NCBI GenBank assembly: GCA_001871445.1 | Contig: MNVD01000011.1 | Coordinates: 29,382-93,381 of the forward strand | From: Candidatus Magasanikbacteria bacterium CG1_02_41_34 | GTDB lineage: Bacteria > Patescibacteriota > Patescibacteriia > Magasanikbacterales > UBA922 | Reading direction: 5' to 3' | DNA length: 64,000 nucleotides | Part shown: piece by piece, positions 5,025 through 33,235 of the stretch | Layout of the letters: every line of letters starts with the position of its first letter | Numbering within the stretch: the stretch's first letter is position 1 | Position numbers and translations under genes: made by a program | The notes under the pieces: model-generated | The model's input: only the letters and a program-made list of their open reading frames with translations | Databases searched by the model: none | Told to the model about the DNA's origin: nothing

Positions 5025-5363
5025 TTATGAAGTTACCTCTTGAGTTTCATCCTCTTTGTTTTTGTGTAATCTCTTTGCTGACTTCTTGCTGGGAGAGTAA
5101 AGGGTATTCTTAATTTTCCACTTATCCACATACTGTCCAATGCCTTTTGTATTCGATTTATTTCGAACGGTCGTCTTCTGTTGTGACCACTTTACTAGAC
5201 TTTCGAAGTTGATCTTGTATCTTCCTGCTACCACTACATAGGTCACTTCTTGGCTTTTGATTGCTCGTCGTATAGTCTGAGGGTTCACCCCAAAGAGGCG
5301 AGCTGCCTCGGATATAGATACTCGAACAATTTCTTGACCTTCGTTTTGAATGATTTCAGGCAT
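5025..5363 (-). CDS. Small excisionase-family (MerR-like) HTH DNA-binding protein
   Basis: Motif 'VSISEAARLFGVNPQTIRRAIKSQEVTYVVVAGRYKINFESLVKW', followed by a basic C-terminal tail. The ATG at 5363 is preferred over the ORF-track TTG at 5387. Confidence 0.55.
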   Translation of the reverse strand: MPEIIQNEGQEIVRVSISEAARLFGVNPQTIRRAIKSQEVTYVVVAGRYKINFESLVKWSQQKTTVRNKSNTKGIGQYVDKWKIKNTLYSPSKKSAKRLHKNKEDETQEVTS

Positions 5364-5803
5364 ATTTGTGTATGTTTTTGTATACAAAATGTATCATAAA
5401 ACCACTTTTTTGTCAAGAGCGTTATCTTTCTTTTTTATTTAAATAGTATACTAGTATATACAAAAACTGCATCTGTAGTACTGTGCGTAGAATAATATTG
5501 AGCAAAGTATACAATAATATATACAAATAGGTACAACAATGTAGAGTTTCCTTTTGTGAATATATGTATATTGTACGACGCATATTAGACGGTTGGTACG
5601 TATATGAGTCAAATTATAACGTAGTTTATTAGCATTGTTGACATTTTTTGTACACTTTTGACATTCAACCTATAAACAATTGCACTATTACACCTCGTAA
5701 GTATGGATTTTTTTAGGTATATCTGCTATACTGCTCTCGTTTCCGGTTGAAATGGATGGACAAAGGAACTGTAACGTTTTCTTATCTTTCACGTCTTCTA
5801 TTT

Positions 5804-6361
5804 ATGAAGAAGGTTAAAAGCCGAATCATTGTACAACGCATACAGAAAGGAAAGGATAGTAATGCTTTCGCAGAGCTATATGACGCGTATGTAGAAAAGA
5901 TGTATCGGTTCATTTCATTTAAAGTGGGCAATCGCCATGTTGCTGAGGATCTGACTAGTGAGTTGTTTCTCAAACTTTGGGAATATCTGACTACCGGAAA
6001 GCAGGTGGACATACAGAGTCTCAACGGACTCGTGTATAGAATGGCGAGAAACCTAGTTATCGATTATTATCGAAAACATGCAGCAGTACAGGAATGTGCG
6101 GTTGAAGATATTTTGCATATATCCGATGGTGTAGATATTGCCGAGCGAGTACATCTTGATATCGAAGTTACAAGTATCCTTTCTCATGTACGAGATTTGA
6201 AACAAGAATATCAGGAGGTTATTCTCCTCAGGTACATTGAAGAACTTTCTATCAAAGAAATTGCAGAAGTGATGAAAAAAAAACGTGGAGCTGTCCGAGT
6301 TACATTGCATCGAGCGACAAAAACACTTCAAGATATACTCATAGATCATCCTTCATCGTAA
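5804..6361 (+). CDS. ECF-type sigma-70 family RNA polymerase sigma factor
   Basis: Region 2 reads 'FAELYDAYVEKMYRFISFKVGNRHVAEDLTSELFLKLWEYL'. Region 4 HTH reads 'ILLRYIEELSIKEIAEVMKKKRGAVRVTLHRATKTLQ'. The ORF-track start (5747) is a TTG. The in-frame ATG at 5804 gives a typical length of about 185 aa. Confidence 0.8.
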   Translation: MKKVKSRIIVQRIQKGKDSNAFAELYDAYVEKMYRFISFKVGNRHVAEDLTSELFLKLWEYLTTGKQVDIQSLNGLVYRMARNLVIDYYRKHAAVQECAVEDILHISDGVDIAERVHLDIEVTSILSHVRDLKQEYQEVILLRYIEELSIKEIAEVMKKKRGAVRVTLHRATKTLQDILIDHPSS

Positions 6362-6371
6362 TACTCATTTT

Positions 6372-7718
6372 GTGTCAAGAATACTCAAAGCACAACTCAA
6401 AAAAGTAAAAAACCTTGAAGGACGTATCAATCCTGACCAGGCTTGGGTTGCGCGTACAAAAACATCATTACTCCAAACAATTGCTTCTGAGACTATAGTA
6501 GCTACAACACCTGTCCGTGCAATGGTAGGAAAAAAACGAGCAGAACAGATGCTTCAAGGGTTTCAAGCTTTTTTCCCAAAAAATATTTTTTCACAAGCAA
6601 GACCAGTATTTATTTCATTGCTGGTTTTTTTGCTTGCTGGGAGTGGGTGGATTGCAAGCGCAAGTGCATCAGAAAGTCTTCCTGGTGACACGTTATGGCA
6701 AGTAAAATTGGCATCAGAAAAAACACAGATTGTTCTTGCAAGCATTACCGGTAATGATAAAAAGAACGTTGCTCTCCAGCTCAAATTTGCAGCACGACGA
6801 GCTGACGAGATCAAGATTGTTACTGGCGAAGAAAAATTTGCACCTGAAGAAAAAGCAAAGCGTGCAGGAGAGGGACTCAAGCAGTTGCAAGAAAACATTG
6901 CTTCTGTAGATACTGCTGTTCATTCTGATGAACAAAAAGAAGATATTAGTAAAGGCGCAAAAGAACTCAATGAGAGTACGGCACAAATCAGTGCTACATT
7001 AAAAGAAGTTGCAAGTACAGTGCAGGATGGTGATGCAGATGCCACACTTACCAAACAAGTCGCCGCAGCACAGCAAGCTGTCGATGAAGTGGGTATCAAT
7101 GCTGTGAAGGTCGCCGTAGAAGGTGCGCAAAATGATGTAGAGCGCACTGCTGCTCAAGTGTTGGTAGAAGAAAAAATAGTCTCAGTGCTCTCTGATGCTG
7201 ATGGTGCGTTGTCCAAAAATGCAGAAGCAAAGGCGCTCATCGAGAATGTAGATGTATCTGAAGGAACTGACGCTACTCACGTTTCTTCTACGATTGCGTT
7301 GAATGACGCACAAGCATCGAGTACTACTGTTACAACAGTAACGAGTGTTTTCGGCACAACAAGTACTGTTAAAGGAATTTCTACTGAAGGAGATGGTGTA
7401 GTTCCTTCACAGACAACAAAACAAATGGTTACTGCCATCCTGGAGCAAGCAGACAAAACGTCTGAGGCAGTGCAAGCGCAAGTTGATCAAATAAAGCAGC
7501 TTATTTCAAACAATGATTTGACTGGGGCACTCGAAAAAGCAAAAGAATTGAAACGAACAACTGTTGTTTCCACACTTCAGACATTGGAAATAAACAAAAC
7601 TGTAGAGCAAGTGACGAATGCTACGCAAACAAAAACATCTGTTGTTCCAAGTAGTAGTGTCACACCACAAAAAACAATTCTTGTACCGATAATATCTACA
7701 AGTACTAGTAAGATCTAG
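6372..7718 (+). CDS. Putative anti-sigma factor or sigma-associated membrane protein. It has a DUF5667-like extracytoplasmic domain and a coiled-coil region rich in Ala, Thr and Ser.
   Basis: A GTG start lies 11 nt after the sigma stop, which suggests translational coupling. There is a short cytoplasmic N-terminus and then a TM helix, 'PVFISLLVFLLAGSGWIASASA'. The segment 'LPGDTLWQVKLASEKTQIVLASITG' resembles DUF5667. A long Ala/Glu/Lys coiled-coil region follows, then a Thr/Ser-rich tail. Confidence 0.45.
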   Translation: MSRILKAQLKKVKNLEGRINPDQAWVARTKTSLLQTIASETIVATTPVRAMVGKKRAEQMLQGFQAFFPKNIFSQARPVFISLLVFLLAGSGWIASASASESLPGDTLWQVKLASEKTQIVLASITGNDKKNVALQLKFAARRADEIKIVTGEEKFAPEEKAKRAGEGLKQLQENIASVDTAVHSDEQKEDISKGAKELNESTAQISATLKEVASTVQDGDADATLTKQVAAAQQAVDEVGINAVKVAVEGAQNDVERTAAQVLVEEKIVSVLSDADGALSKNAEAKALIENVDVSEGTDATHVSSTIALNDAQASSTTVTTVTSVFGTTSTVKGISTEGDGVVPSQTTKQMVTAILEQADKTSEAVQAQVDQIKQLISNNDLTGALEKAKELKRTTVVSTLQTLEINKTVEQVTNATQTKTSVVPSSSVTPQKTILVPIISTSTSKI

Positions 7719-8052
7719 TAACGCACCATGTGTGTACGTGTGTGTTGCTCTAAGATGAAGAGGGGCAGTACACACGTGTACGATATGTGCACGGACGTTA
7801 ATTCAACTTATGACGTGTTACTGTATGGCTTTTCCTTCGACCTCTGGTCGGGGGAGGCTGCCATACAGTAGGCACCTTCTTGATTTGTTCACCCATATTG
7901 GGTGAGATCAAGAACCCATAATACAAAGGTCGAGTCTTCCCAGGCGTATCATGGCATGTACTCTGGGTACATAACACTTCATCTTTATTGACCGTCCTTG
8001 CTATCGCTATGGATGAGCGCAACAAAGGTGGAGCATATATATAAATATTATT

Positions 8053-11000
8053 ATGACTGATGTAATTAACCTTACAAAAAAGGCATTTACATGGTCTGTC
8101 GTTGTAATGACGATAGCCTGGAGTATTGGTCTTTCTGCACTCGCAGCACCTCTTGCTGCAAATGCTGCAGATTGTCCTACACTCGAAGCTGGAGATCTTT
8201 TTAAAGTAAAAGGAAACACAGCTGTATATCTCCTCGACGCAGACATGAAACGTTTGTACTTCCCACATTCTGATGTATATCACACATGGTTTAGTGATTT
8301 CTCAGGTGTTGTAGAAATTGATTCTACATGTGTAAGTGCATACCCAAACGCTGTAAACCCATCTGGTGTTGACTACCGACCAGGCTCACGCCTTGTAAAA
8401 GTAGTTATCTCACCTGAAGTATATGCTGTAGGACCTGGCAATATGCGCCATCTCCTCGGTAGTGAAGAAGAAGCCTCATCACTTTATGGTGCTAACTGGG
8501 CTTCTCTTGTTCGTGATGTTCACGACTTCCACTGGCCAAACTATACGACTGGTGCAGAAGTTAATGGACTTATGAATGGTATGCTTGTAAAGCGTGCTGA
8601 TACTTCTGATGTGACTACTGTGTACGTTGTACAAGATGGAAAACTCCATACTGTAGACGGAACACTTCCTGCTTTTGTAAAAGCAGATGTCCGCACTGTA
8701 GCATCAACACTCGTTGACGCTCTTGAATTGAGCGTTGACTCTGTAACAGCTGCTTCACTTACTGCTGACCCTTCACAGGGAAGTGGAAGTGGAACTCCTG
8801 GAACACCCGTAGTAACTGGTGGAAACGTTTCTGTTTCTCTCGCTGCTGAAACTCCAGGATCTACTGATATTCTTTCTGACAGTGGTTCTGATTACAACCA
8901 AGCAAACATTCCTTTCACCGCTGTACGATTTACAGCTGGAAGTGACGCTGTTGTTGTAAAGACAGTCAAGTTCACGCGAACTGGTATTGCTTCAGACTCT
9001 GATCTTGGAAATTTGTATCTTTATGATGGAGACGCTCGACTTGCAGAATATACAAGCTTTAATGCTAAAGTTGTAACATTCTCAAATAGCACTGGTCTCT
9101 TTACTGTCCCTGCAAACAGCAGTAAGACCGTTATGCTCCGTGGTGACCTTGCAAAATCTGCAGTCACTGGTGGCAAAAAGATCGGATTTGAAGTAGCTAG
9201 CTCTGATCATGTTGTGATCAATGGTGGTAGTGTTACTGGATCATTTCCTGTAGCTGGTAGTCAAATGGCTACTGCACAGGTAACTGATCTTGGTGATCTA
9301 TATCTCACTGGATACACAACATTCCCTGCAACGGTAAAAGCTGATGAAGCTGGAAAAGAACTCTGGCGCATGACCTTGAACGCTGCAGAACAAGACATGG
9401 AACTTCGTTACATGAAATTGACCATGATTGGTACAATTTCTACGAGCGATGTTCAAAACTTGAAACTTGAAGTTGGTGGTGCCCAAGTTGGTGCTACTGC
9501 AAACATTTCTGACGACAGAACTGTTATCTTTGATCTTTCAAGTGCTCCTATTGCTGTGAATGCTGGACAAAGTAAGATTGTTGTCCTTCGTGGTGATATG
9601 ATGGGTGGATCTGGACGTGTATTCAAGTTTAGTGTACAACGTCAAAATGATCTCAAAGCATACGACACAGAATATGGTGTCTATGTAAATCCAACTATCA
9701 CAACTGCTGCTACTTCATTTGGAGTTGTAGAGCCAGAAACTGGAAATGGTACTGACGTAGACAGTGGAACACTCACTATTGGTGTTGCTACTGATTCACC
9801 TACCGGAAGCACTGTTGACGGTGGTACAGGTGTCACCCTAGCTAAATTTACCTTTGATGCCTCTGGTGAAAGTGTAAAGGTAACCAGTTTGCCTGTCTAT
9901 TGTACTGGATCTGACAATACTGACATTCTTGCAAATGTAAAAGTTTTGCTTAATGGCTCACAAGTCGGTTCTACGGATGCTGCAATGACATGTTCTGGTG
10001 TTGGTGGAGTAAACAGCTTTACCTTTGGCAACACATTTGTTGTTGACAGAGATACTGATTCTGTTGTAACTATCGTAGCTGATACTACAGATGCTACGAT
10101 CGTAAATGCTGCTACTCTTTCTGTAAGTCTCAATACTGGTGATACTGGTAATGGGCAAGGTCAAACAACATTGACCGGTATCACTACTACAGGATTGACT
10201 GCTCGTACTCTTACGGTACGAAGTGGAGTCGTGACTGTTTCAGAAAACTCAGCATTTGGTGACAAAACAGCTACAAACCCAACTGGTACTGTAAATGCAG
10301 CTGGTGCACGAATTGCATCATTTGTTATTACAGCTGGTTCTGGTGAAGCTGCTGATGTAACACAAATTTCACTTGCTGATGATGCTACGACAGGATTGGC
10401 ATCAAACTACCAAAAGCTCATGTTGATGCATGATGGTGTACAGATTGGTACAACCGTCAATACACTCAACACAACTGCAAGCACTTACTCATTTACTCCA
10501 TCTACTGCTATCCGTATCGCTGCTGGACAACAGTATGTAGTAGATGTCTATGCTGACATCAAGAGTAGTGCTGCTGATGCTGGTGAAGCTGCATATGCAC
10601 CTGTTCGTCTCGCTGCTACTGCAGTTACTGCGACAGGTGTGAACACAACATCAAATATTAGCTCAACAAACAGTGCTACATCTCTTCAGAATGCATATAT
10701 CGCTGCAAGTGGTAACTTGACTGTTGCTATTTCTGGTGATACTGCTGAAGCTGCTCAAATCGTTCTTGGATCTACAGCTGTAGAACTTGGAACATTCGAA
10801 TTGACAGCTGATGCTGCTGAAAGAATCAACGTTACAGATCTCGTTGTATCTGTTTCGTCTACTGCTGGATACCAAGGTACACTCCGAAACCTCCGCCTCT
10901 ATAAGGACGGTGTTGCATTTGGACCAGCCGTGAATCTTCCAACAGGAGCTGCATCTACTGGAACCTACTACAATGCGACCTTCTCTGGTCTTGCATTGAC

Positions 11001-11718
11001 AGTAGAAAAGAACAGTACTGCAGTAATCACTGTAAAAGCAGACGTTACTACTTTCACCAATGGTGGTGCAAATGGAGACGTAAATGGTTCATTCTTCGCT
11101 GCAATGTTGTCTAACGTTGGAAGTGGAAGTGAACCTGTAACTGCTGTCGGTGAATCATCTGGTGCAAGTATTACCGGTGCACAACTTGACATGGGTACTT
11201 CCCCTGATCTCAATCAAGTCGCAAATGAGATGGTTGCATACCGATCGAAAATTACTGTAGCATTCGCAGGTGACTCACCTAGTGGATCATCTGTTGGAGC
11301 AAGTGCTCAGACTATCGCGAAGTTCGTCGTATCAAACTCAAGCAATGTAGGAAACTACAAAGCAACAGTGAACACAATGAACTTTGCTATTAGCAATACA
11401 GGAATCTCAAATACAGCAACACGAACGATGAATGTATATAAAGATTCTGTTTCTGCTAGCAACTTGCTTGCTACGACCACTGCTGGTTCAGGCACCTTGA
11501 ACTTCGCTGATACTAGTATCAGCACGTTTACAGATGTTGATATCACAGCTGGAAGCTCAAAGACCTTCGTTGTAACACTTGATACAAGTGATGCTGGTAC
11601 TGATGACAAATTGTCTATCGGATTGGCTCAAGGAGATATCGTTTGGTCTGATGACGCTGTAAACGTCATCACCGAAGTAGATGGTCTCCCTCTCGTATCC
11701 AAGACACTTACCTACTAA
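8053..11718 (+). CDS. Giant secreted surface protein with tandem repeats, rich in Thr, Ser, Ala and Gly. It is a candidate S-layer or adhesin glycoprotein.
   Basis: Signal peptide 'KKAFTWSVVVMTIAWSIGLSALAAPLAANA|AD'. About 1221 aa with almost no charged or aromatic core. It contains recurring ~100-120 aa modules. Examples are 'TAVRFTAGSDAVVVKTVKFTRTG...LYLYDGDARL...VTFSN...VPANSSKTVMLRGDL', 'MELRYMKLTMIGTIS...LKLEVGGAQVG...VIFDLS...VNAGQSKIVVLRGDM' and 'LRNLRLYKDGVAFG...ATFSGLALTVEKNSTAVITVKADV'. No stop codon interrupts 3.6 kb. Confidence 0.7.
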   Translation: MTDVINLTKKAFTWSVVVMTIAWSIGLSALAAPLAANAADCPTLEAGDLFKVKGNTAVYLLDADMKRLYFPHSDVYHTWFSDFSGVVEIDSTCVSAYPNAVNPSGVDYRPGSRLVKVVISPEVYAVGPGNMRHLLGSEEEASSLYGANWASLVRDVHDFHWPNYTTGAEVNGLMNGMLVKRADTSDVTTVYVVQDGKLHTVDGTLPAFVKADVRTVASTLVDALELSVDSVTAASLTADPSQGSGSGTPGTPVVTGGNVSVSLAAETPGSTDILSDSGSDYNQANIPFTAVRFTAGSDAVVVKTVKFTRTGIASDSDLGNLYLYDGDARLAEYTSFNAKVVTFSNSTGLFTVPANSSKTVMLRGDLAKSAVTGGKKIGFEVASSDHVVINGGSVTGSFPVAGSQMATAQVTDLGDLYLTGYTTFPATVKADEAGKELWRMTLNAAEQDMELRYMKLTMIGTISTSDVQNLKLEVGGAQVGATANISDDRTVIFDLSSAPIAVNAGQSKIVVLRGDMMGGSGRVFKFSVQRQNDLKAYDTEYGVYVNPTITTAATSFGVVEPETGNGTDVDSGTLTIGVATDSPTGSTVDGGTGVTLAKFTFDASGESVKVTSLPVYCTGSDNTDILANVKVLLNGSQVGSTDAAMTCSGVGGVNSFTFGNTFVVDRDTDSVVTIVADTTDATIVNAATLSVSLNTGDTGNGQGQTTLTGITTTGLTARTLTVRSGVVTVSENSAFGDKTATNPTGTVNAAGARIASFVITAGSGEAADVTQISLADDATTGLASNYQKLMLMHDGVQIGTTVNTLNTTASTYSFTPSTAIRIAAGQQYVVDVYADIKSSAADAGEAAYAPVRLAATAVTATGVNTTSNISSTNSATSLQNAYIAASGNLTVAISGDTAEAAQIVLGSTAVELGTFELTADAAERINVTDLVVSVSSTAGYQGTLRNLRLYKDGVAFGPAVNLPTGAASTGTYYNATFSGLALTVEKNSTAVITVKADVTTFTNGGANGDVNGSFFAAMLSNVGSGSEPVTAVGESSGASITGAQLDMGTSPDLNQVANEMVAYRSKITVAFAGDSPSGSSVGASAQTIAKFVVSNSSNVGNYKATVNTMNFAISNTGISNTATRTMNVYKDSVSASNLLATTTAGSGTLNFADTSISTFTDVDITAGSSKTFVVTLDTSDAGTDDKLSIGLAQGDIVWSDDAVNVITEVDGLPLVSKTLTY

Positions 11719-11770
11719 TCGTCTAAACAATTCTATTGTTTAGCATAGTAGTTCTCTTCTCGAAGAGATC

Positions 11771-11799
11771 AAACACCCCCGGAATTCGGGGGTGTTTTG
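11771..11799 (+). terminator. Strong rho-independent terminator after the giant surface-protein gene
   Basis: The sequence 'acacccccg gaatt cgggggtgt' gives a 9-bp GC-rich stem with a 5-nt loop. A T-run, 'tttt', follows at 11795-11798. Confidence 0.8.
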
Positions 11800-11858
11800 A
11801 TCTATCCATGTTACTTGCTTCGGAGGCGTCTATCGGCTATACTATTGTTCATATGTAT

Positions 11859-14099
11859 ATGAATAAAATAACAAAGATCATTGTAGGAGGGCTCTTTGTT
11901 TCTGTTATTTTTCCTCTTCTCTTCACCCCTCAGACTATGTTTCCTTGGGGGTATGGGAAAGAGTTGTTTTTTGTATTTCTCATTGCATGTTTAGGGTTGC
12001 TTTCTCTACCGATATTGTGGAAGTACAAAAATACTACAACAGCTATGATGAGTCATATCACCATGGTTGATGTATTTTTTTTGTTGTTTATATGTTCATT
12101 TTTTCTCAGTACGTTCCTAGGTTTTGAGCCTGTTCGTAGTTTTTGGGGAGATCAAAGTAGAGGAGGGGGAGCGCTATTGTGGGGACAACTCGGAGTGTAT
12201 TACGTATTCCTTCGTATATTTTTTCAAACCAAAAAACAATGGAGGTACTTTGGCATGGGTATTATAGGGGTAGGACTAGTAGGAAGCCTTATTGCATGGC
12301 TAGGTGCGTATACGTCAGCATTTTCTGGCGTTATTATGAAAAGTAGTCATCTCAGTGGACTCGCAGGCAATCCTATATTTTTTGCATCGTCATTGATACC
12401 ACCCTTATATGTTTCACTTTCTTTTCTCTTTGTAGAGACAGAAAAGTGGAAACGTTACATATTCGGTGGTGTTGCAGGTATTTTGCTCATTACTCTGCTT
12501 GCGACACAAGTGCGAGGAGCATTTCTTGGGTTGCTCGTGTCTCTTGTCAGTATGGGGGTATATTTTACGATTGCAAAAAAAGCGTTTGTGAAAAAAAGAA
12601 GGATTTCCGTTTTGCTTTCTTTAGTTGTAAGTAGTGTATTGATTGTGGGGTTAATTTTTTGGAATACTCGAACGAGCGTACTTGCAGAAGTCTCACCAAC
12701 ACTGTCTCGTATGTTTACCATATCTACAGAGACAGGCACTGGACAAACGCGTCTTATGGCATGGAAGATCGCATTGAGGGGAGCTGTAGAGCATCCTGTC
12801 TTAGGATGGGGGCCAGAGTCATTTCAATTTATATTTGACACCTATTACAACCCTGCATTTTTAAGATTTTCTTTTTCGGAAACAGTGTGGGATCGTCCAC
12901 ATAATTTTTTTCTTTCAATTTTGACAGGACAAGGGCTTGTGGGGCTGTCACTCTATCTGTTTTTTTTGGCTTTGTTGGCAGGGGCCTTATTCAAAAAAAT
13001 TCGACAGGAGGTGAACCCTGCACAGGTGTGGTTTCTTCTGTTTCTTTTTGGTGGGATTGTGAACTATGTAGTCCAAAGTTTTTTTGGTGTGGAAGTATTC
13101 CATTCCCTCATTGTGTGGGTTGCATTTTTGGCATATGTATCTTTTGTTATTGGATCGAACACACAGAGCGCCTCATGGTTTCAAGGATCTCATCATAAAT
13201 CTATCGTACTTGTTGGTGCTGGTATTCTTCTCCTTTGTACCCCGTGGATTTTGTTCACAGTCCCACGATTGTATCAATCGAGTGTTGCTATGGCTTCAAG
13301 TAGAGATATCGCTCGATCAGGAAACTCTGAAGGGTGGAAGGAATCAGTGGAAAAAGTAGTAGGGATAGATGCTCCTATACAGTGGGAGCAAGCAAGATAT
13401 ATTGTACAGGATATTTCTTATCTTGATGGAGCAAAACTATTGAAAAGCAAAGATCTCAGTCTAATTGCCCCCAAACTTTTGAATATATTTGAAACTGATA
13501 TATCTCGAAATCCAAAATCATATCAATATTATTTTTGGACTGCAGAGCTCTATGGATTTATGGGTGAATATATGGATTCGCAGTACTTGGAAAAAAATAA
13601 AGAATTTTTGCTTAGGGCAGGAGAGCATAGCCCTACACAGCAACGTATTCCACTTCTTTTGGCAAAAAATGATATCCTAAACGGAAACGTTGATGGTGGT
13701 GTTGAGAGGCTTCATCAATTGTTGGATACAGATCCAAGCATAGCTGAGGTCCGTTGGTTTTATGGCCTTGCGCTTATTGAACAGGGTAATAAAGATAGTG
13801 GGCTGGAAGAACTTGAAGCAAGTGGTTCTTTTGGTTTTACTGTTGATTCTAATATCGTATATGTGATAGATTTGTATGCACAAGATGAACAATATGAACA
13901 TATTATTCCATTGTATCAATTGTTGATACAGCGTCATCCTGGCGAGAGTACGTGGTATGCCAGAATTGCCGCAACATACGCAGCAATGGGACAAAGAGAT
14001 AATGTGATAGAAGCTATCAATACTGCTGTAGAGTTAGATCCTTCCTTAAAAACAGAAGCCATGGAATTTTTACAGTCTCAAGGAATTTCCTCCTTTTGA
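11859..14099 (+). CDS. Wzy_C-domain polytopic membrane protein with a C-terminal TPR domain. It belongs to the O-antigen ligase / O-oligosaccharyltransferase / polymerase family.
   Basis: At least 10 predicted TM helices. Family motifs are 'QVRGAFLGLLVSL', 'HPVLGWGPESFQFIF' and 'RPHNFFLSILTGQGLVGL'. The third matches the H-N-x-x-L-E...G-x-x-G signature seen in WaaL and PglL. About 300 C-terminal residues look like TPR ('AATYAAMGQRDNVIEAINTAVELDPSL'). The ATG at 11859 is preferred over the ORF-track start at 11736, which would overlap the upstream terminator. Confidence 0.65.
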   Translation: MNKITKIIVGGLFVSVIFPLLFTPQTMFPWGYGKELFFVFLIACLGLLSLPILWKYKNTTTAMMSHITMVDVFFLLFICSFFLSTFLGFEPVRSFWGDQSRGGGALLWGQLGVYYVFLRIFFQTKKQWRYFGMGIIGVGLVGSLIAWLGAYTSAFSGVIMKSSHLSGLAGNPIFFASSLIPPLYVSLSFLFVETEKWKRYIFGGVAGILLITLLATQVRGAFLGLLVSLVSMGVYFTIAKKAFVKKRRISVLLSLVVSSVLIVGLIFWNTRTSVLAEVSPTLSRMFTISTETGTGQTRLMAWKIALRGAVEHPVLGWGPESFQFIFDTYYNPAFLRFSFSETVWDRPHNFFLSILTGQGLVGLSLYLFFLALLAGALFKKIRQEVNPAQVWFLLFLFGGIVNYVVQSFFGVEVFHSLIVWVAFLAYVSFVIGSNTQSASWFQGSHHKSIVLVGAGILLLCTPWILFTVPRLYQSSVAMASSRDIARSGNSEGWKESVEKVVGIDAPIQWEQARYIVQDISYLDGAKLLKSKDLSLIAPKLLNIFETDISRNPKSYQYYFWTAELYGFMGEYMDSQYLEKNKEFLLRAGEHSPTQQRIPLLLAKNDILNGNVDGGVERLHQLLDTDPSIAEVRWFYGLALIEQGNKDSGLEELEASGSFGFTVDSNIVYVIDLYAQDEQYEHIIPLYQLLIQRHPGESTWYARIAATYAAMGQRDNVIEAINTAVELDPSLKTEAMEFLQSQGISSF

Positions 14100-14119
14100 T
14101 ACATGTTATCTATACTTAT

Positions 14120-14752
14120 ATGAACAAAAAAAAATATATCATTTTTATCCTTATCACTGTACTTTTCGTTGCCGGAGGTGCTTACTTGTTTGTACAACGT
14201 TCTCATTCTTCGCTGCAGAACGAACAGTATTATAGTAAGACATCATACATCGAAGCACTACACGCATTTTCATTGGAGCATCCTGAACTGAGTGAGTTTA
14301 CGACCCTTGTAGACGAAGAAGAAGCAAAAATTGCAGCAGCTCCGTCAAATACAGAGGGATATCTGAGTCTTGGGTTGGCATGGAAAAGTCTTGCAGACAG
14401 GGCAGGAGACCCTCCAAACATGTTTTATGAAGCAGCATTTGAAGTATATAAGAGAGGTATAGAACTTACGGATAGAAGGGATACAACGTTTTTAAAAAAT
14501 GCAGCAAACATGGCGGAGTTTCAAAAGGATTTTGATACCTCTGAAACATTATTGCAAGAAGCTATTGTAGCAACTCCGGGTGATGCTGATCTATATATTC
14601 GGTTAGCAGACGTATATACATATCTTATGAAGAAGCCGACACAAGAAATTATAGATTTTTTGGATACTGGCATTGAAATTTTGCCAAATGCGACAAGATT
14701 AGAAAATTACAAAAAACGTCTAGAGACGAATGAGCAGAGTAATAATTTATAA
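14120..14752 (+). CDS. Small membrane-anchored TPR-like protein (hypothetical)
   Basis: N-terminal TM helix 'YIIFILITVLFVAGGAYLFV', then a helical repeat region. It lies between the two Wzy_C-TPR paralogs. ATG at 14120. Confidence 0.35.
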   Translation: MNKKKYIIFILITVLFVAGGAYLFVQRSHSSLQNEQYYSKTSYIEALHAFSLEHPELSEFTTLVDEEEAKIAAAPSNTEGYLSLGLAWKSLADRAGDPPNMFYEAAFEVYKRGIELTDRRDTTFLKNAANMAEFQKDFDTSETLLQEAIVATPGDADLYIRLADVYTYLMKKPTQEIIDFLDTGIEILPNATRLENYKKRLETNEQSNNL

Positions 14753-14758
14753 ATTTTC

Positions 14759-16846
14759 ATGTTGTACTCAAAATTGTTAGATAAAACCGAACAAATACTC
14801 CGTTATACAATATTGTGTTTGATCACGACAACTTTTTTAGTCCCATTGATCATGGCTCCATCTTTTATTTTTCCTTTTATTGTACCAAAAATACTGGCAT
14901 TTCGCACAATTGTTATTTTGATGAGTGTTACGTATGTCATGTTGCTCTGGAAATATCCAAAAAAATATGCACCTGGAAAAAACATTGTTACTATAAGCGT
15001 ATTCCTTTTTTTGTTCAGTTTTGCTATATCTACATTTACTGGTGTAGATTGGTATAGAAGTCTTTGGGACAATCATGAACGAATGTTGGGACTTTTTACC
15101 TTTGTTCATTATGTTATTTATTTTTTCGTGTTGTCGAGTGTCATACAGTCGAAGGAAGAATGGATACAATTGTTTCGTTTTTTTCTCGGTGCAGGGATGC
15201 TGGTAGTTATTATTGGCGTATGGCAAAAATCAATCAATCCTGAACTTTTGCTCAATAGAGGTGCTTTTCGTGTCTCTTCTACACTTGGAAATGCTATCTA
15301 CTTAAGTGGATATGGCCTTTTTTTGGCTACAATCGGTGCATTACTTGCATATTGGGAGAATGTAAACATGTGGCGTATTTATGCCGCAATTGGGGCTTTT
15401 CTTGGTATAGTAGGTATTTTTTTAGGAGGAACACGAGGAACCTTGCTTGGGTTTCTCGCTGGCTTGGGAATTGGTCTTGCTTGGTTTATATTCTATGCAA
15501 AAGCAAATAAAAGAATGAAGAAATTTGTATTGCTGGGTACAAGTTGTTTGTTGATGTTTTTTGTGTCTTTGTTCTTTTTTCGTAGTTCGGATGTCGTGCG
15601 TCACATGCCATTGATTGGTCGTCTTGCCGAAACATCATTGTCGTCAGGGACTGCGGAAACACGTATTATGGCGTGGCAGATTGCTTTTGAAGCGTGGAAA
15701 GATAAACCATTTTTTGGGTGGGGACCAAATAATTTTTATTATGCATTTAACGAATTCTACAACCCAACGTTTCTCGAGCATGGATATCAAGAGACATGGT
15801 TTGATAATGCACATAATATTGTCATGAATACACTCACGACACAGGGTGCTTTTGGACTGGCAGTGTATATTATCCTATTTGGTGGAGCAATATATGCTCT
15901 GATAAAAATGAAAGATGACGATATACTTGGCGGGCTGGTAAGTGTTATCATTGTCAGTTTTCTGATAGCACATTTTATTCACAATGTATTCGTATTCGAA
16001 AATCCTACGTCATATTTGTACTTTTTTACGATACTAGGTTTTATCGCCAGTTCGTACAAAACCTTTTTAAAGAAAACAAAAACCGTGAAAGTTAAAAACG
16101 TTGTATCGCAACACCTTGGGGTAGGAAAAATGTCTATACTTTTGTTTGTTGCACTACTTTTTGTGTTTTCAACAGAAATAAATCCAGCTCGAGCAAATAA
16201 GACCATTGCTCTAGCTATCAAATCTGTCAGTACAGACCCTGAACTAAGTATTGCTCAGTATCGTAAGGCAACATCAATCCCAAGTCCTCATATTGATGAT
16301 ATTAGGAATGATATGTCCCGCATTTATTTACAGGCAATACCTTTTTTGATTGATCAGCATCAAAATGAAATAGCAAATACATATTTTGCAGAAGCAAAAA
16401 AGAGTATGGAAGAAAATCTTCTTTTGCATCCACGAGATATTCGTGTGCATATGCAGTTGGCTCAGGTGCTTTTGCAGGGAGCGCGGCTAAAACAGGATAT
16501 TTCCTATATTCAGCAGGCAAAACAGATACTGCGTATTGCATTGGTCTATTCTCCCAAACGTCAACAGTTAGTTTTTCAATATACTCAAATATTGGATATT
16601 CTTACTGAATATGATGAGGCCTTATCTCTTCTAAGACAAGTTGTAGACGACGACCCTCATATTGTAGAAAGTTGGGCACGGTTGATTTATATGTATGGAA
16701 GAGCAGGAGAAAAGGACTTGGCTGTACAGGTATATCAAGAAGCATTAACAGCTGGTATTGATTTTAGTGGTGATTTTTCAAATACGGTAAATTCAGTAAT
16801 ATCGGCATCTACATCATCGACATCCAATATTCATTCAGTAGAGTAA
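14759..16846 (+). CDS. Second Wzy_C-domain membrane protein with a C-terminal TPR domain, paralogous to 11859..14099
   Basis: Same motif set as the first paralog: 'GTRGTLLGFLAGL', 'DKPFFGWGPNNFYYAF' and 'NAHNIVMNTLTTQGAFGL'. The TPR-like tail reads 'VDDDPHIVESWARLIYMYGRAGEKDLAVQVYQEAL'. Confidence 0.65.
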   Translation: MLYSKLLDKTEQILRYTILCLITTTFLVPLIMAPSFIFPFIVPKILAFRTIVILMSVTYVMLLWKYPKKYAPGKNIVTISVFLFLFSFAISTFTGVDWYRSLWDNHERMLGLFTFVHYVIYFFVLSSVIQSKEEWIQLFRFFLGAGMLVVIIGVWQKSINPELLLNRGAFRVSSTLGNAIYLSGYGLFLATIGALLAYWENVNMWRIYAAIGAFLGIVGIFLGGTRGTLLGFLAGLGIGLAWFIFYAKANKRMKKFVLLGTSCLLMFFVSLFFFRSSDVVRHMPLIGRLAETSLSSGTAETRIMAWQIAFEAWKDKPFFGWGPNNFYYAFNEFYNPTFLEHGYQETWFDNAHNIVMNTLTTQGAFGLAVYIILFGGAIYALIKMKDDDILGGLVSVIIVSFLIAHFIHNVFVFENPTSYLYFFTILGFIASSYKTFLKKTKTVKVKNVVSQHLGVGKMSILLFVALLFVFSTEINPARANKTIALAIKSVSTDPELSIAQYRKATSIPSPHIDDIRNDMSRIYLQAIPFLIDQHQNEIANTYFAEAKKSMEENLLLHPRDIRVHMQLAQVLLQGARLKQDISYIQQAKQILRIALVYSPKRQQLVFQYTQILDILTEYDEALSLLRQVVDDDPHIVESWARLIYMYGRAGEKDLAVQVYQEALTAGIDFSGDFSNTVNSVISASTSSTSNIHSVE

Positions 16847-16856: not shown

Positions 16857-17645
16857 ATGCCAAAAATAAGTGTTCTATTATGCGTGTATAACGGTGATGA
16901 CTATGTACGCGGTGCTCTTGATAGTATTCTTTCTCAGACGTATAGTGATTTTGAGTGTGTTATTATTGATGACGCTTCCTCAGACACAACACCACACATA
17001 CTACGTGAGTATGCATCAAAAGATAATAGGATACATATACATACAAATGATAAAAATATGGGACTCACAGCATCTCTCCAAGATGGGCTGTCATATTGCA
17101 ATGGAAAGTATATAGCAAGAATGGATGTCGATGATATTGCAAGACGTGATAGGTTCGAAAAGCAATATGCATTTATGGAAGAACATCCTGACGTGGCGTT
17201 ATGTGGTTCCTTTGCAACTGTTATCGATGAAAAAGAAAGTACTATTGGAAAAAAGATATTTCCGACATCCTCAGTAGATATAAAAAAAAGACTTTTATTT
17301 AACAATCAGTTTGTTCACTCTACTCTTTTTTTTATAAAAGAAAAAATAGTAGACATTGGAGGGTATGATGTTTTTTTCAAAAAAAGTCAGGATTATGATT
17401 TGGTATTCCGTGTTGGATCTGTATACACCGTTGCAAATATTCCTGAATATCTTGTATCATGGCGCTTGGGCTCTCGGAGCATTTCTTGGCAGAGTAGGGG
17501 ACAAGAAATGTATGCGCTTCGGGCACGATGGAACGCAATTACAAGATATGGATATCCAAAAATCAATGGAATATACCACATTGTGGTACGAGCAATTTGG
17601 TTGTGTGTACCACTTTCGTTAAAAAGAAAGCGATATGTTCGTTAG
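16857..17645 (+). CDS. GT2-family glycosyltransferase
   Basis: 'ISVLLCVYNGDDYVRGALDSILSQTYSDFECVIIDDASSDTT', followed by a DxD-type motif, 'ARMDVDD'. Confidence 0.8.
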   Translation: MPKISVLLCVYNGDDYVRGALDSILSQTYSDFECVIIDDASSDTTPHILREYASKDNRIHIHTNDKNMGLTASLQDGLSYCNGKYIARMDVDDIARRDRFEKQYAFMEEHPDVALCGSFATVIDEKESTIGKKIFPTSSVDIKKRLLFNNQFVHSTLFFIKEKIVDIGGYDVFFKKSQDYDLVFRVGSVYTVANIPEYLVSWRLGSRSISWQSRGQEMYALRARWNAITRYGYPKINGIYHIVVRAIWLCVPLSLKRKRYVR

Positions 17646-18585
17646 TCTTATTATTCCCACAATTGTAGAAAGAAAAAATGAACTTGTTCGTTTATTGTCT
17701 TCCGTGGCATCTCAAAAAAAAATACCTGATGAAGTTATTATTGTTATGCAGGGATTTGGTAATAATTATGTATCAGCTGTAGCATCTATACAGCAATCGT
17801 TTCCAATGCTTACATTCGTATGTATTCAGAGTAGTATCCGCTCCCTTACAAAAGCTCGAAATGAGGGGGTGTGTAAAAGTAGGGGAGATATTATTGCATT
17901 TTCAGATGATGATATTATATTGGAGCCCAACTATATTGAAAAAATGATTCATTTTTTTGAAACATATCCCAAGGCACTTGGTGTTCAGGGACTTATTACA
18001 GACTTTGTAGAGGGACACACAAAAAAAATTGGGGGAAATTCATTTGTGTATGCCTGTTACAATGTGTTTGCCAAAATATTCTTATTGAATAATAGTAGTA
18101 CCAAAAACAAGTTATTACTATCTGGACGTAGTCAATATGCGACTCATGTAAAAACTGTGACACCCTGTGAATGGCTCAGTGGTATCGGAGCGTATAGAAA
18201 ATCTGTATTTACAGAGTTTACGTTTGACGAATCACTAGGTGGGTATGCACTCGGTGAGGACAAATTGTTTTCATATCCAATAAATCAAACATATCCAGGT
18301 GTATTGTATATTGACCCTTCAATTCGTTGCAAACATGTGTATGGAGAACAAGGTCGACCTAAAAATGAAGAATTGGTTCGTATGAAGGTGCAAAATATTC
18401 ACTATATCTGGAATAAACTGATGTCAGATCGTGGGTTTCTTGCCAAAATTGCGTTTTGGTGGGCGAATATAGGAGATTTCATCAGCGTGTTTTTTGCATC
18501 TATACTGCGTGTATATTCTTTTCGTTTTTTTTTGCTTCATGTGAGAGCCTATTTTGCACTTATTGGACATACGTATGATACCTAA
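17635..18585 (+). CDS. GT2-like glycosyltransferase
   Basis: 'VSLIIPTIVERKNELVRLLSSVASQ...DEVIIVMQG' and 'IAFSDDDIILEPNY'. It overlaps the previous gene by 11 nt. Confidence 0.6.
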   Translation: MFVSLIIPTIVERKNELVRLLSSVASQKKIPDEVIIVMQGFGNNYVSAVASIQQSFPMLTFVCIQSSIRSLTKARNEGVCKSRGDIIAFSDDDIILEPNYIEKMIHFFETYPKALGVQGLITDFVEGHTKKIGGNSFVYACYNVFAKIFLLNNSSTKNKLLLSGRSQYATHVKTVTPCEWLSGIGAYRKSVFTEFTFDESLGGYALGEDKLFSYPINQTYPGVLYIDPSIRCKHVYGEQGRPKNEELVRMKVQNIHYIWNKLMSDRGFLAKIAFWWANIGDFISVFFASILRVYSFRFFLLHVRAYFALIGHTYDT

Positions 18586-19717
18586 AAAACAAAATAAACA
18601 ATTAGTTCTTTTTTTCACGTATGGTGTATCCCTGGCTATTTGGGAAAAAGCAGGGACCCTGGGGCGTGATGCTCGTCTATATCAAGAATTACAAAAGCAT
18701 AATATAGACGTGCTATTTGTAACATACGGTAAAAGCAGAAGAGAAAAAGAATTGGCTGATAGATTGGGGATCTCTATTTTTTATAACAAGTGGCATCTTC
18801 CAACATTCTTATACTATGTGTTTCTTCCGGTATTGTTACTATTTCAATCTTACAAAAATATAGGTTGGATTAAATCCCATCAGTATATAGGTGTTTTTCC
18901 TGCATATGTATATGCAAGATTGAAAAAAGTCTCATATGTCGCTCGCGGAGGCTATCTTCCTACCTATTTTTTTGCAAAAGAAAAAAGATATAGTCTTCGG
19001 CGTTGGCTGAAATATATCTTTGTGAGTATTGACGAATGGATAGTGGTCAAGAAGGCAACTGTAATTTGTCTTCCAAGCAAAGAGGAAGAAGAGTATTTAC
19101 AGAGGAAATATACGACATGTTGTCCCAACATTGTCTATCAACCAAACTGGGTTGATACTGATACTTTTTTTCCTCTACCTCTTGCAAATAAAAAGAAAGA
19201 TATCCTTTTTGTTGGTCGTTTGGAATCTCAAAAAAGACCACTGCTTTTTTTGGATGCATATAAAAAAATAGGGAAGGGAGTAAGCGGAACGCTTGTGGGA
19301 ACAGGCTCTCTGGCAAGCACCGTATCGGATATTATTGCAGACAATGATCTTTCTCTTCATTTTTTACATAATCGATTGCCGAATAATGATTTGATTCCTA
19401 TTTATCAATCGCATAAAGTATATGTGCTTACTTCTTCCTATGAGGGAGGGTCTGCAAAAACTGTATTAGAAGCGATGGCATGTGGTGTTCCTGTTGTTGT
19501 TACAAATGGATTTGGTCTTGCTGCCACGGTTACTGATGGATATGATGGATTTGTCTGTCCGCCAGATCCTGACATCTTGGCAAAAAAAATTGACCTGCTC
19601 CTCACGAATGAAAGTGTATATACTCGTATGAGTGAGCATGCTCGGTCTACAAGTATACAAAAATTTAGTATGCAGGCCGTTTTGAAAAATGAACTTGCAT
19701 GGTTACACAATTATTGA
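18575..19717 (+). CDS. GT4-family glycosyltransferase
   Basis: C-terminal motif 'EGGSAKTVLEAMACGVPVVVTNGFGLAATVTDGYDGFV'. The ATG at 18575 is preferred over the TTG at 18554. It overlaps the upstream gene by 11 nt. Confidence 0.7.
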   Translation: MIPKKQNKQLVLFFTYGVSLAIWEKAGTLGRDARLYQELQKHNIDVLFVTYGKSRREKELADRLGISIFYNKWHLPTFLYYVFLPVLLLFQSYKNIGWIKSHQYIGVFPAYVYARLKKVSYVARGGYLPTYFFAKEKRYSLRRWLKYIFVSIDEWIVVKKATVICLPSKEEEEYLQRKYTTCCPNIVYQPNWVDTDTFFPLPLANKKKDILFVGRLESQKRPLLFLDAYKKIGKGVSGTLVGTGSLASTVSDIIADNDLSLHFLHNRLPNNDLIPIYQSHKVYVLTSSYEGGSAKTVLEAMACGVPVVVTNGFGLAATVTDGYDGFVCPPDPDILAKKIDLLLTNESVYTRMSEHARSTSIQKFSMQAVLKNELAWLHNY

Positions 19718-19754
19718 TACAGTACTATTCTTATACTCGTGAAGCATAGATACT

Positions 19755-20777
19755 ATGAAAAAAGCACTTATTACAGGTATTACCGGTCAAGATGGCTCTT
19801 ATCTTGCTGATTTTCTTTTGGAGAAGGGATACGAAGTACATGGTATTATCCGTCGTTCGAGTAGTTTCAATACTGAACGAATTGACCATATATACAAAGA
19901 TCCTCATGAAAAAGGTGTGAAGATGTTTTTGCATTATGGAGATTTGGCAGACGCGAGTAATATCGAACGTATTTTGAAGAAAATCAAGCCAGATGAAGTA
20001 TATAATCTTGGAGCACAAAGTCATGTTCGTGTAAGTTTTGATATCCCTGCCTATACTGGAGATGTTGTCGGGCTAGGGACACTGCGATTACTTGAGGCAA
20101 TTAGAAATTCAGGTATTGATACAAAATTTTATCAAGCGTCTAGTTCTGAAATGTTTGGAAAAGTTCAGGAAACTCCACAAAAAGAAACAACGCCATTTTA
20201 TCCACGTTCACCATATGGATGTGCAAAAGTTTTTGCCTATTGGACGACGATAAATTATCGTGAGAGTTATGGAATGTTCGCATGTAATGGAATTCTTTTT
20301 AATCATGAATCACCTCGACGTGGAGGAACATTTGTTACAAAAAAGATTGTAGACGGTCTCATACACATAAAAGAAGGAAAACAAGACACCCTCTTTTTAG
20401 GGAACCTTGATGCAAAACGTGACTGGGGATACGCAAAAGAGTATGTAGAAGCCATGTGGCTTATGTTACAACAAGATACTCCTGACGATTTTGTCATAGC
20501 CACAGGAGAGACACATAGTCCACGTGAGTTTGTAGAAGAAGCCGCAGGATTGCTGGGTTTTGATATTGAATGGAGAGGAGATGGACTCAAAGAAAAAGGT
20601 ATTGATAAAAATAGTGGAAAGACGATTATTGAAATTGATCCAAAATATTTTCGTCCAGCTGAAGTAGATTTACTTATTGGGGACGGGACAAAAGCAAAGA
20701 ATATGCTCAATTGGGAACCAAAAGTGAAGTTTAAAGAGTTGGTTAAAATTATGGTGGAGGAAGGAATCGGGAAATAG
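19755..20777 (+). CDS. gmd: GDP-mannose 4,6-dehydratase
   Basis: '[47 protein letters not shown]'. Also '[10 protein letters not shown]' (the YxxxK motif) and 'NHESPRRG'. Confidence 0.9.
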
Positions 20778-20783
20778 TTATAT

Positions 20784-21698: not shown

Positions 21699-21704
21699 AT
21701 TACT

Positions 21705-22640: not shown

Positions 22641-22644
22641 TAGT

Positions 22645-23613: not shown

Positions 23614-23615
23614 GT

Positions 23616-25747: not shown

Positions 25748-25756
25748 TAGTAATAT

Positions 25757-26824: not shown

Positions 26825-26834
26825 CTGACACCCT

Positions 26835-26864
26835 TTGACACTTATTGGCCCTTTATGGTAATAT
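26835..26864 (+). promoter_or_regulatory. Near-consensus sigma-70-type promoter upstream of the HTH gene
   Basis: TTGACA (26835-26840), an 18-nt spacer, then TAATAT (26859-26864). It lies 24 nt upstream of the ATG at 26889. Confidence 0.5.
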
Positions 26865-26888
26865 ACAATTGTTGGTCTAATTGTAAAT

Positions 26889-27134
26889 ATGGGTGAAATC
26901 AAACCAAATGAAGTATATACCACTGCTGAAGTAGAGACCCTTTTGAAAGTGAGTAAAAGTACTGTGAAACGCCTGATAAAAAAAGGTCTTATTCGTACTA
27001 ATAAAATTGGTGGACAATATCGTATTTTGGGGCACGAGCTTTTACGTATGTTATCTCCTGATGTGGATAAGAAAGCAACAAACGCATACAAATCAATAAA
27101 GGAAAAGACCAAGAAACGTGTTAAAAATTGGTAA
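26889..27134 (+). CDS. Small excisionase-family HTH DNA-binding protein
   Basis: 'VYTTAEVETLLKVSKSTVKRLIKKGLIRTNKIGGQYRILGHELLRML', followed by a Lys-rich tail. It is the same family as 5025..5363. Confidence 0.55.
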   Translation: MGEIKPNEVYTTAEVETLLKVSKSTVKRLIKKGLIRTNKIGGQYRILGHELLRMLSPDVDKKATNAYKSIKEKTKKRVKNW

Positions 27135-27227
27135 TTGTATGGGAATATGTGTCACTTATGGAAAATAACAAGCTGGCTCTGTATTAGAATTTTTTTTTAA
27201 ATTAAGTTTTTTGATTTAGCCTCTGAT

Positions 27228-28790: not shown

Positions 28791-28793
28791 TAT

Positions 28794-30206: not shown

Positions 30207-30227
30207 AACACAATAGATATTAAAAAC

Positions 30228-33226: not shown

Positions 33227-33235
33227 AGATATACT

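Follow-up and report, generated by a model that had tools for sequence, protein, structure and literature searches.

Do members of the Patescibacteria glycosylate a surface protein with an enzyme encoded next to it? The question is raised by a locus of Candidatus Magasanikbacteria bacterium CG1_02_41_34, a tiny uncultured groundwater member of the candidate phyla radiation, contained in a 64,000-nucleotide stretch of contig MNVD01000011.1 (assembly GCA_001871445.1, positions 29,382 to 93,381 of the forward strand), which is the window analysed here and to which all positions refer. A sequence-only reading of the window had proposed a self-contained protein O-glycosylation module at 5804-16846, in which a giant secreted protein is the acceptor of a glycan and two WaaL/PglL-like membrane proteins are its O-oligosaccharyltransferases (O-OTases). 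The locus is real, with corrections. Six plus-strand genes occupy the interval and encode, in order, an extracytoplasmic function (ECF) sigma factor (5804..6361, 185 aa), a putative anti-sigma protein (6372..7718), the giant protein (8053..11718, 1221 aa), a ligase-family protein with a C-terminal TPR domain that we call OAL1 (11808..14099, 763 aa), a small membrane-anchored TPR protein (14120..14752, 210 aa), and a second ligase-family protein with TPR domain, OAL2 (14759..16846, 695 aa). The genes are co-directional as described and lie where they had been placed, and they number six rather than five, the gene at 14120-14752 having been overlooked; the tight linkage ascribed to them fails at the junction of the anti-sigma and giant genes, where a 334-nt gap is occupied by a conserved structured RNA. 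The roughly 33 kb of glycan genes said to follow the module are present, as a cluster identified by Pfam scans (16857..50021, plus strand). We consider the chances about even that this is an S-layer-glycosylation-like envelope locus of Magasanikbacteria in which OAL2 glycosylates the giant protein, with OAL1 and the small TPR protein helping or complementing.

Both OAL proteins match Wzy_C (PF04932) far above the gathering cutoff of 31.7 bits (OAL1, 71.7 bits, E 7.5e-20; OAL2, 71.4 bits, E 8.9e-20), both have TPR matches, and an alignment from end to end gives 26% identity (E 2e-45), in agreement with the earlier description of two TPR-bearing Wzy_C paralogs. The 763-aa length of OAL1 is that of the public assemblies; an in-frame TTG lies upstream at 11736. 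Residues R226, R302, and H352 of OAL2 are invariant among OAL2 and 60 homologues of 44-51% identity (61 sequences), and they are still invariant in a 30-sequence alignment to which OAL1 was added. In the AlphaFold model of OAL2 (predicted local distance difference test score, pLDDT, 90.6; predicted template modelling score, pTM, 0.90), nine transmembrane helices are followed by an 80-residue loop (274-353) bearing R302 and H352, four more transmembrane helices, and, after the 13th, approximately 10 TPR-type helices at aa 494-689. Lys-rich loops 66-75, 247-254, and 441-454 lie on one side of the model, and the catalytic loop and the TPR domain lie on the other. Because Lys-rich loops mark the cytoplasmic side under the positive-inside rule and a 13th transmembrane helix precedes the TPR domain, the catalytic loop and the TPR domain are both predicted to face outside. 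The sequence-only reading had held that cytoplasmic TPR tails would speak against its proposal; the model of OAL2 places the tail on the extracytoplasmic side.

When the OAL2 model was compared with the Protein Data Bank (PDB) by Foldseek, the top match was WaaL (7tpg; E 1.9e-06; template modelling score of 0.67 over the target; 446 aligned columns), and all remaining matches were TPR proteins. A profile of the OAL2 transmembrane domain retrieved just two solved families from the PDB, 7tpg (2.4e-07) and 9rmk (4.6e-07), the latter a 610-aa chain annotated "Oligosaccharyltransferase"; a PDB sequence search with full-length OAL1 gave TPR proteins only. The invariant H352 aligns with the His in the FTHSHN motif of 9rmk, the second Arg, which belongs to a TR-MAW motif, has an Arg opposite it in 7tpg as well as in 9rmk, and the first Arg aligns cleanly with 7tpg only. 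We take the three residues of OAL2 to correspond to R215, R288, and H337 of EcWaaL and the His to correspond to H349 of NmPglL. Chain length and motif, rather than its annotation, suggest that 9rmk is PglL. The ligase fold and the catalytic Arg/Arg/His bear out the description of these membrane domains as WaaL/PglL-like and indicate that OAL1 and OAL2 are probably ligase-type members of the Wzy_C family, with OAL2 a candidate protein O-OTase.

The same family membership could be read another way: one or both Wzy_C-TPR proteins might be Wzy-type polymerases for a capsule-like polysaccharide, with the giant gene an incidental neighbour. Pfam Wzy_C takes in many Wzy polymerases as well as ligases, the window encodes both a Wzx flippase and an initiating phosphoglycosyl transferase, and the presence of three Wzy_C-family genes within about 20 kb makes differing roles likely. 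The third of these genes encodes a protein of 436-483 aa with no TPR and lies outside the window, approximately 2.7-4.2 kb before its first position (L088:14433-15884, on the minus strand of that locus), in an operon with a GT4 gene and a gene for a GHL15/FG-GAP protein whose 3′ part occupies window positions 25-1710. Its product is very divergent from OAL1 and OAL2 and retains the loop His, and it may be either the true polymerase or another ligase. A general polymerase signature does not exist, and no solved Wzy polymerase was among the PDB matches of OAL2. The polymerase explanation had been tied by the sequence-only reading to the lack of any other Wzy in the genome, and here another Wzy_C gene is found about 2.7 kb from the window. 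Against polymerases stand the only solved relatives found for OAL2, a ligase and an oligosaccharyltransferase with which the catalytic His aligns. Neither a Wzz/PCP chain-length regulator nor a tyrosine-kinase co-polymerase was detected among the window's open reading frames (ORFs) of at least 150 aa. An incidental association would also be hard to reconcile with a fixed place immediately 3′ of the giant gene in 57/64 loci, where the surrounding glycan genes are not conserved, and we regard polymerase function as improbable.

The association with the giant gene was assessed by a synteny scan that started from the OAL2 family and used one genome per species; it found 206 relatives, and the best 80 loci were analysed. 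Sixty-four loci were informative: in 55 the sequence before the OAL2 homologue extended for at least 9 kb, and in 9 for 4.5-9 kb. A giant homologue is encoded co-directionally upstream of OAL2 in 48 of the 55 and in all 9 of the shorter loci; in 57/64 species-level loci, the giant and ligase genes travel together. Among the 55 loci with longer upstream sequence, the sigma factor is found upstream of OAL2 in 43, the anti-sigma protein in 41, the HTH_17 protein described below in 37, and a DUF11 protein in 28. The distance from giant to OAL2 is often only about 100-200 bp. The two genes are directly adjacent in about 20 loci; the small TPR gene alone stands between them in 8, a second Wzy_C-TPR gene in 7, a Wzy_C-TPR gene followed by a small TPR gene (the order in the window) in 6, and the reverse order in 4. 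A second Wzy_C-TPR gene is present between giant and OAL2 in only about 18/62 loci. OAL2 is the constant partner of the giant protein; OAL1 is accessory, and so is the small TPR protein, since no more than a minority of loci has either of them, which makes "self-contained" too strong a term for the module.

Two of the seven exceptions have an unrelated ORF in the slot of the giant gene, of 1302 aa (L052:5843-9749) and 1159 aa (L084:6012-9489), which may represent cassette-like replacement of a surface protein gene. Loci more distant from that of the window have a different composition: a Falkowbacteria-type locus (L093) and locus L095 both encode, in order, the HTH_17 protein, the sigma factor, a DUF5667 protein, the giant protein, and the small TPR protein, and in neither is there a Wzy_C gene in the vicinity. 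Among the contigs carrying the locus (L010, L012, L020, and others), many are labelled "uncultured Gammaproteobacteria bacterium" in the public records, and the label of one is "Candidatus Udaeobacter"; the locus is Patescibacteria-specific, and the deposited taxonomy of these contigs is probably mislabelled.

What kind of protein is the constant partner? The giant protein has a signal peptide (aa 1-38), as had been stated, leaving an acidic mature protein of 1183 residues (isoelectric point 4.4). Its composition is 12.7% T, 10.1% S, 11.5% A, 9.6% G, and 11.1% V; the combined Thr, Ser, and Ala content of 34% is moderate rather than extreme as had been claimed, and the sole low-complexity tract is the linker SQGSGSGTPGTP. 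The exact protein sequence was found on 12 public contigs, the metagenome-assembled genomes GCA_002322435.1, GCA_002792975.1, and GCA_002788415.1 (Magasanikbacteria/Patescibacteria) among them, and at least 256 homologues were detected, all from Patescibacteria (Magasanik-, Uhr-, Falkow-, Azam-, Woese-, and Parcubacteria) and approximately 1200 aa in length. We detected no Pfam domain in any homologue, and the giant protein itself matched no named family in Pfam, NCBIfam, or PDB sequences. An AlphaFold 2 model (pLDDT 88.8) consists of an alpha/beta N-terminal module (aa 39-238), a disordered Gly/Ser/Thr/Pro linker, and approximately seven beta-sandwich domains, for which Foldseek returned only generic Ig-like arrays (integrin legs, alpha-2-macroglobulin, titin). 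The N-terminal module, comprising mature residues 1-200 with two conserved Cys, is among the best-conserved parts of the protein, and its hidden Markov model (HMM) also matches the C termini of other large ORFs in loci L038, L047, L039, and L067. Within the window, the module recurs, split by an insertion (HMM E 1.9e-20), in a 509-aa TSP3-repeat protein (51800-53329, plus strand), which is followed by an S8 subtilase gene (53319-55304). A Woesebacteria relative has the central array in common with the giant protein and a different N terminus. Being common to other secreted proteins, the N-terminal module is likely a surface-anchoring module that has no family name, and a mobile terminal module joined to a beta-sandwich array would fit a wall-anchored surface or S-layer protein.

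An anchoring module invites the main alternative explanation of the linkage: OAL1 and OAL2 may be envelope glycopolymer ligases whose acceptor is lipid or cell wall, the polymer being the ligand of the N-terminal module, much as secondary cell wall polymer is the ligand of S-layer anchoring domains, so that gene linkage reflects anchoring of the giant protein rather than its modification. The occurrence of the module in other secreted proteins is what this explanation would predict, and the fold and residues of OAL2 are those of WaaL, which joins glycan to lipid. Firmicutes S-layer genes adjoin genes for the anchoring polymer. Co-evolving S-layer anchor systems have also been discussed (bioRxiv 10.1101/2025.04.02.646754). 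The module is conserved, whereas the glycan genes beside it vary strongly and, in the window, include a low-GC island; this pattern is more readily expected of a variable surface antigen than of a conserved anchoring ligand, and distant lineages keep the same N-terminal module with no ligase adjacent. In monoderms it is normally LCP enzymes that join polymers to the wall, and no LCP-family match was seen in the window. To our knowledge, lipid A-core, the acceptor of WaaL, is not expected in the candidate phyla radiation. On balance we think glycopolymer ligation unlikely to be the explanation.

The small TPR protein is recognised by a match to TPR_14 (1.2e-04). An alternative TTG start at 14096 gives 218 aa, and in this longer ORF a transmembrane helix spans aa 15-33, preceded by a KKK sequence that is predicted to put the TPR domain outside. 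Its orthologues follow the giant gene in Magasanikbacteria and also in the distant lineages in which no ligase is adjacent. An origin of the OAL TPR tails by fusion with the small TPR protein was considered and not accepted, the similarity between them being marginal (E 0.009-0.03).

The glycan-building cluster encodes GT2 and GT4 glycosyltransferases, GDP-mannose 4,6-dehydratase, epimerases, two UDP-glucose/GDP-mannose dehydrogenase-family enzymes, FkbM and S-adenosylmethionine-dependent methyltransferases, and a DegT aminotransferase, together with a Wzx-type flippase (27228-28790, plus strand) and a DUF6044/YfhO-like GT-C protein (43197-45320, plus strand), both identified by Pfam. Beyond the cluster, an initiating phosphoglycosyl transferase of the WbaP/PglC type is encoded on the minus strand (50340..51890; Pfam Bac_transf 3.4e-63). 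With this enzyme, the glycosyltransferases, Wzx, and the ligases, all parts for en bloc O-glycosylation are present in the window. Glycan genes follow OAL2 in all three loci that were inspected by Pfam, and their content differs; a constant transferase among differing glycan genes fits a conserved enzyme whose surface glycan substrate varies. Within 24000-47000, GC content drops to 28-35%, compared with about 40% before, and is lowest at 42000-46000, which spans methyltransferase genes and the DUF6044/YfhO-like GT-C gene. Low GC is frequent in surface-glycan clusters of this kind and suggests that this part of the cluster is horizontally exchanged and hypervariable.

If OAL1 and OAL2 are O-OTases, their substrates could chiefly be proteins other than the giant, such as type IV pilins, the DUF11 protein, or the TSP3-repeat protein with its anchor module. 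PglL-type enzymes are general O-OTases with many substrates, two paralogues could share out substrates between them, and a PilT-like ATPase as well as other secreted repeat proteins are encoded in the window. The conserved neighbour is the giant gene and not a pilin gene, however, and no pilin gene was identified in the window; we give this view of the enzymes little chance of being correct.

Genes for known O-glycosylation systems show comparable arrangements. Both WsaB and WsfB belong to the Wzy_C proteins; a C-terminal TPR domain is present in WsfB and in PglL, and WsaA is a separate 168-aa TPR protein encoded beside WsaB (PMC2943079). The S-layer genes sgsE and sgtA are found near their slg clusters, each with transcription of its own (PMC2943079). 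O-OTases fused to TPR (WsfB, PglL) and one with a separate TPR protein (WsaA/WsaB) are both on record (PMC2943079). The nearest documented counterparts are the S-layer glycosylation loci of Bacillales. In one of them, the slg cluster of Geobacillus stearothermophilus NRS 2004/3a (WsaA, WsaB, WsaP, SgsE), a Wzy_C O-OTase candidate (WsaB) and WsaA parallel OAL2 and the 210-aa TPR protein, the latter a positional analogue of WsaA (PMC2943079). That cluster also has an initiating galactose-1-phosphate transferase, co-directional glycan genes, and a nearby S-layer gene, to which the Bac_transf enzyme, the downstream cluster, and the giant gene upstream correspond here. The two differ in that the ligases of the window themselves carry TPR tails, and export is of the Wzx type rather than by a Wzm/Wzt ABC transporter as in Geobacillus. 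The giant protein lacks SLH and every other known anchoring domain and does not resemble SgsE, and the conserved unit adds the ECF sigma/anti-sigma pair and the RNA leader; the host belongs to the Patescibacteria, and the system is known from genes alone. Paenibacillus alvei WsfB and Neisseria PglL share with the OAL proteins a Wzy_C domain and C-terminal TPR (PMC2943079), but the sequence relation is remote and confined to the catalytic region, and WaaL 7tpg matches equally. A further difference is that wsfB lies apart from spaA, the gene of its target (PMC2943079), whereas OAL2 adjoins the giant gene. WaaL of Cupriavidus metallidurans (7tpg), the best structural match, has the periplasmic-loop Arg and His in common with OAL2 but has 12 transmembrane helices and no TPR, whereas in OAL2 a 13th helix leads to approximately 200 aa of external TPR domain. 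A TPR domain beside or fused to the enzyme on the acceptor side is supportive of an O-OTase, not diagnostic of one.

In the reading that we favour, in which the locus works like the slg loci of Geobacillus and Paenibacillus and OAL2 glycosylates the giant protein, an oligosaccharide would be begun on undecaprenyl phosphate by the Bac_transf enzyme, extended by the downstream glycosyltransferases and modifying enzymes, and carried across the membrane by the Wzx-type flippase. The giant protein would be exported via Sec, held at the surface by its N-terminal module, and would form a beta-sandwich coat. OAL2 would move the lipid-linked glycan en bloc to Ser/Thr (or Tyr) residues of the giant protein, with its TPR domain recognising or holding the protein substrate, and the second ligase, OAL1, and the small TPR protein would be accessory in this genome. 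We infer that the downstream cluster is the source of the glycan and that the giant protein forms a surface layer, as well as what the sigma factor and the RNA regulate.

The assignment of the giant protein as acceptor and of the paralogs as its O-OTases draws on the ligase fold, the outward TPR domain, the genomic linkage, and the precedents; several points weigh against it. The fold and sequence of OAL2 match WaaL and the oligosaccharyltransferase equally, and the acceptor is not readable from the enzyme. TPR domains occur in polysaccharide-export scaffolds too. No known sequon is enriched in the giant protein: the Bacteroidetes-type D[ST][AILVMT] occurs 6 times against 8.9 expected, and N-x-S/T is not enriched either. 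No known anchoring domain (SLH, CWB2, and the like) or S-layer family was detected in it, and we infer, rather than observe, that it is the protein that bears the glycan. Five OAL2 homologues lie within glycan clusters with no giant gene nearby. Because distant loci keep the giant unit with no Wzy_C neighbour, the ligase link appears to be lineage-specific, a Magasanikbacteria feature; the oldest unit would comprise the sigma factor, the anti-sigma protein, the giant protein, and the small TPR protein.

How the giant gene is controlled is suggested by the genes and sequences that precede it. The 185-aa protein described earlier as an ECF sigma factor is indeed one: it has regions 2 and 4 only (Sigma70_r2, 3.9e-09; Sigma70_r4_2, 7.5e-13; plus Sigma70_ECF) and matches TIGR02937 of NCBIfam with 81 bits (cutoff 42.9). 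Its nearest NCBIfam subfamily is TIGR02952, the BldN family, at 125 bits, which is far below the cutoff of 206. The BldN family controls surface-layer proteins in Streptomyces. An ECF-type promoter, TGTAAC-N16-CGTC, lies at 5770..5795 on the plus strand; this is the sole exact copy within the window, and the motif precedes the sigma homologue in 39/44 upstream regions analysed. Eight nucleotides separate its end from the sigma ATG, giving a near-leaderless transcript, and because this conserved promoter ends 8 nt before it, ATG 5804 is taken as the true sigma start. The sequence of the promoter, with AAC in the −35 and CGT in the −10 element, is probably the usual autoregulated type. Of the 53 promoter matches across all loci, 42 precede the sigma gene and not one precedes giant. 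Direct transcription of the giant gene from an ECF promoter of its own was accordingly rejected, the motif being absent before giant in every locus; transcription may reach giant by read-through.

The anti-sigma gene begins with a GTG 10 nt past the sigma stop codon and encodes a protein with one transmembrane helix (aa 79-97), a DUF5667-like domain that is predicted to be extracytoplasmic, and a Thr/Ser/Ala-rich tail. The earlier description of a DUF5667-like putative anti-sigma protein holds for the gene and its membrane segment; the DUF5667 score of this copy, 23.5 bits, is below the gathering score of 27, the match is confident in the orthologues of loci L091, L093, and L095, and no recognised anti-sigma domain was found in the protein by Pfam or NCBIfam. 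Position and topology suggest a putative anti-sigma role. The pair resembles autoregulated ECF pairs with AAC...CGT promoters in its two-domain sigma factor, its co-transcribed single-pass membrane partner, and the sequence GTAAC-N16-CGTC (5771-5795) upstream of its own gene, and it differs from them in the partner's lack of a recognised anti-sigma domain and in having no second promoter copy in the window. Because the pair stays with the giant and small TPR genes where no ligase adjoins, it appears to be tied to the giant protein rather than to glycosylation. It would constitute an autoregulated envelope-signalling pair tied to the giant protein, whose mRNA would have its own structured leader.

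A MerR/excisionase-like DNA-binding protein of the HTH_17 family (5025..5363, minus strand; Pfam HTH_17 3.6e-07; 112 aa in public assemblies) is encoded divergently from the sigma factor, and its gene occupies the same place in 37/55 related loci and in the distant L093 and L095. Between the two genes, at 5370-5620, are repeated palindromic words around TGTATACA / TTTGTATACAAA, which recur upstream of sigma in about 29-30 of 44 related loci and may be operators for the divergent HTH_17 protein. Next to the HTH_17 gene is that of a 597-aa protein (3139-4932, minus strand; Pfam), which has DUF11/CLIPPER repeats and begins with a membrane segment at its N terminus. The two are kept side by side in 28/55 related loci, an envelope protein travelling with the module.

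The spacer between the anti-sigma and giant genes contains a structured RNA leader (7818..8047, plus strand), detected by folding energy, covariation, and a covariance model. Its fold has a z-score of −6.6. A 5′ hairpin pairs ACUGUAUGGC (7820-7829) with the invariant GCCAUACAGU (7860-7869); farther downstream, the invariant word AAGGUCGA (7926-7933) is followed by a covarying hairpin at 7934-7945, and a long-range covarying helix joins 7982-7994 with 8020-8031. Invariant words include GCCATACAG at about −200 and AAGGTCGA at about −110 relative to giant; the leader, with its invariant words GCCAUACAG and AAGGUCGA, occupies the same position in 43 related loci. In the 3′ half, the two helices have compensatory changes in 17/17 pairs, 82.9% of alignment cells are paired compared with 60.3% in shuffles, and the covariation score is 0.672, compared with 0.266 in shuffles (0/500 of which reach 0.672) and 0.14-0.25 in slid-partner controls. 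Applied to 1.53 Mb, a covariance model of the 3′ half (R1) matched once in each of 44 loci, always on the strand of the giant gene with the match ending at its start codon, and nowhere else; 21 of the 44 are outside the training set, including that of a Falkowbacteria locus. In the 5′ hairpin, the 3′ arm is invariant and the 5′ arm has mismatches and G-U pairs with no compensatory changes, so that this hairpin is predicted from conservation and folding energy. RNAalifold applied to the gappy full-length leader alignment (A5) recovered the 3′ helix alone. No Rfam family matched the leader at gathering or relaxed thresholds. The leader may be a new class of cis-regulatory or stabilising RNA in Patescibacteria; precedents for long structured leaders exist among highly expressed S-layer genes.

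Our literature search found no paper that links the candidate phyla radiation with O-antigen-ligase-type enzymes or S-layer glycosylation, which agrees with the earlier statement that no such system has been described there, and it gave nothing usable on DUF5667, PglL cryo-electron microscopy, or S-layers of the candidate phyla radiation. The locus would extend a known kind of system to a lineage with no described case and would add to it a new RNA leader and an ECF sigma factor paired with a DUF5667 protein; every function proposed here is a prediction. The envelopes of the candidate phyla radiation are almost uncharacterised molecularly, and because the cells live on other microbes or depend on them, much of their biology takes place at the surface. 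The locus supplies testable candidates for a surface protein family (at least 256 members, unannotated), its glycosylating enzyme, a regulator pair with a promoter motif, and a gene-specific RNA. If the ligase acts on the giant protein, WaaL-family protein O-glycosylation would be extended to a deep bacterial lineage, and glycoengineers may welcome an O-OTase that comes with a TPR domain by nature and whose partner protein is known. Should the ligase act elsewhere, synteny this strong would still point to a functional coupling that has yet to be explained. Tentatively, and with less confidence than in the glycosylation reading itself, we suggest that the approximately 1200-aa family could be the major surface-layer protein of Magasanikbacteria and relatives, O-glycosylated with a hypervariable glycan by TPR-fused PglL-like enzymes, its production set by an ECF sigma factor, a DUF5667 membrane sensor, and an RNA leader that reports envelope or glycan status. 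If this broader proposal were true, no system for envelope assembly and protein glycosylation would have been defined in the candidate phyla radiation before this one.

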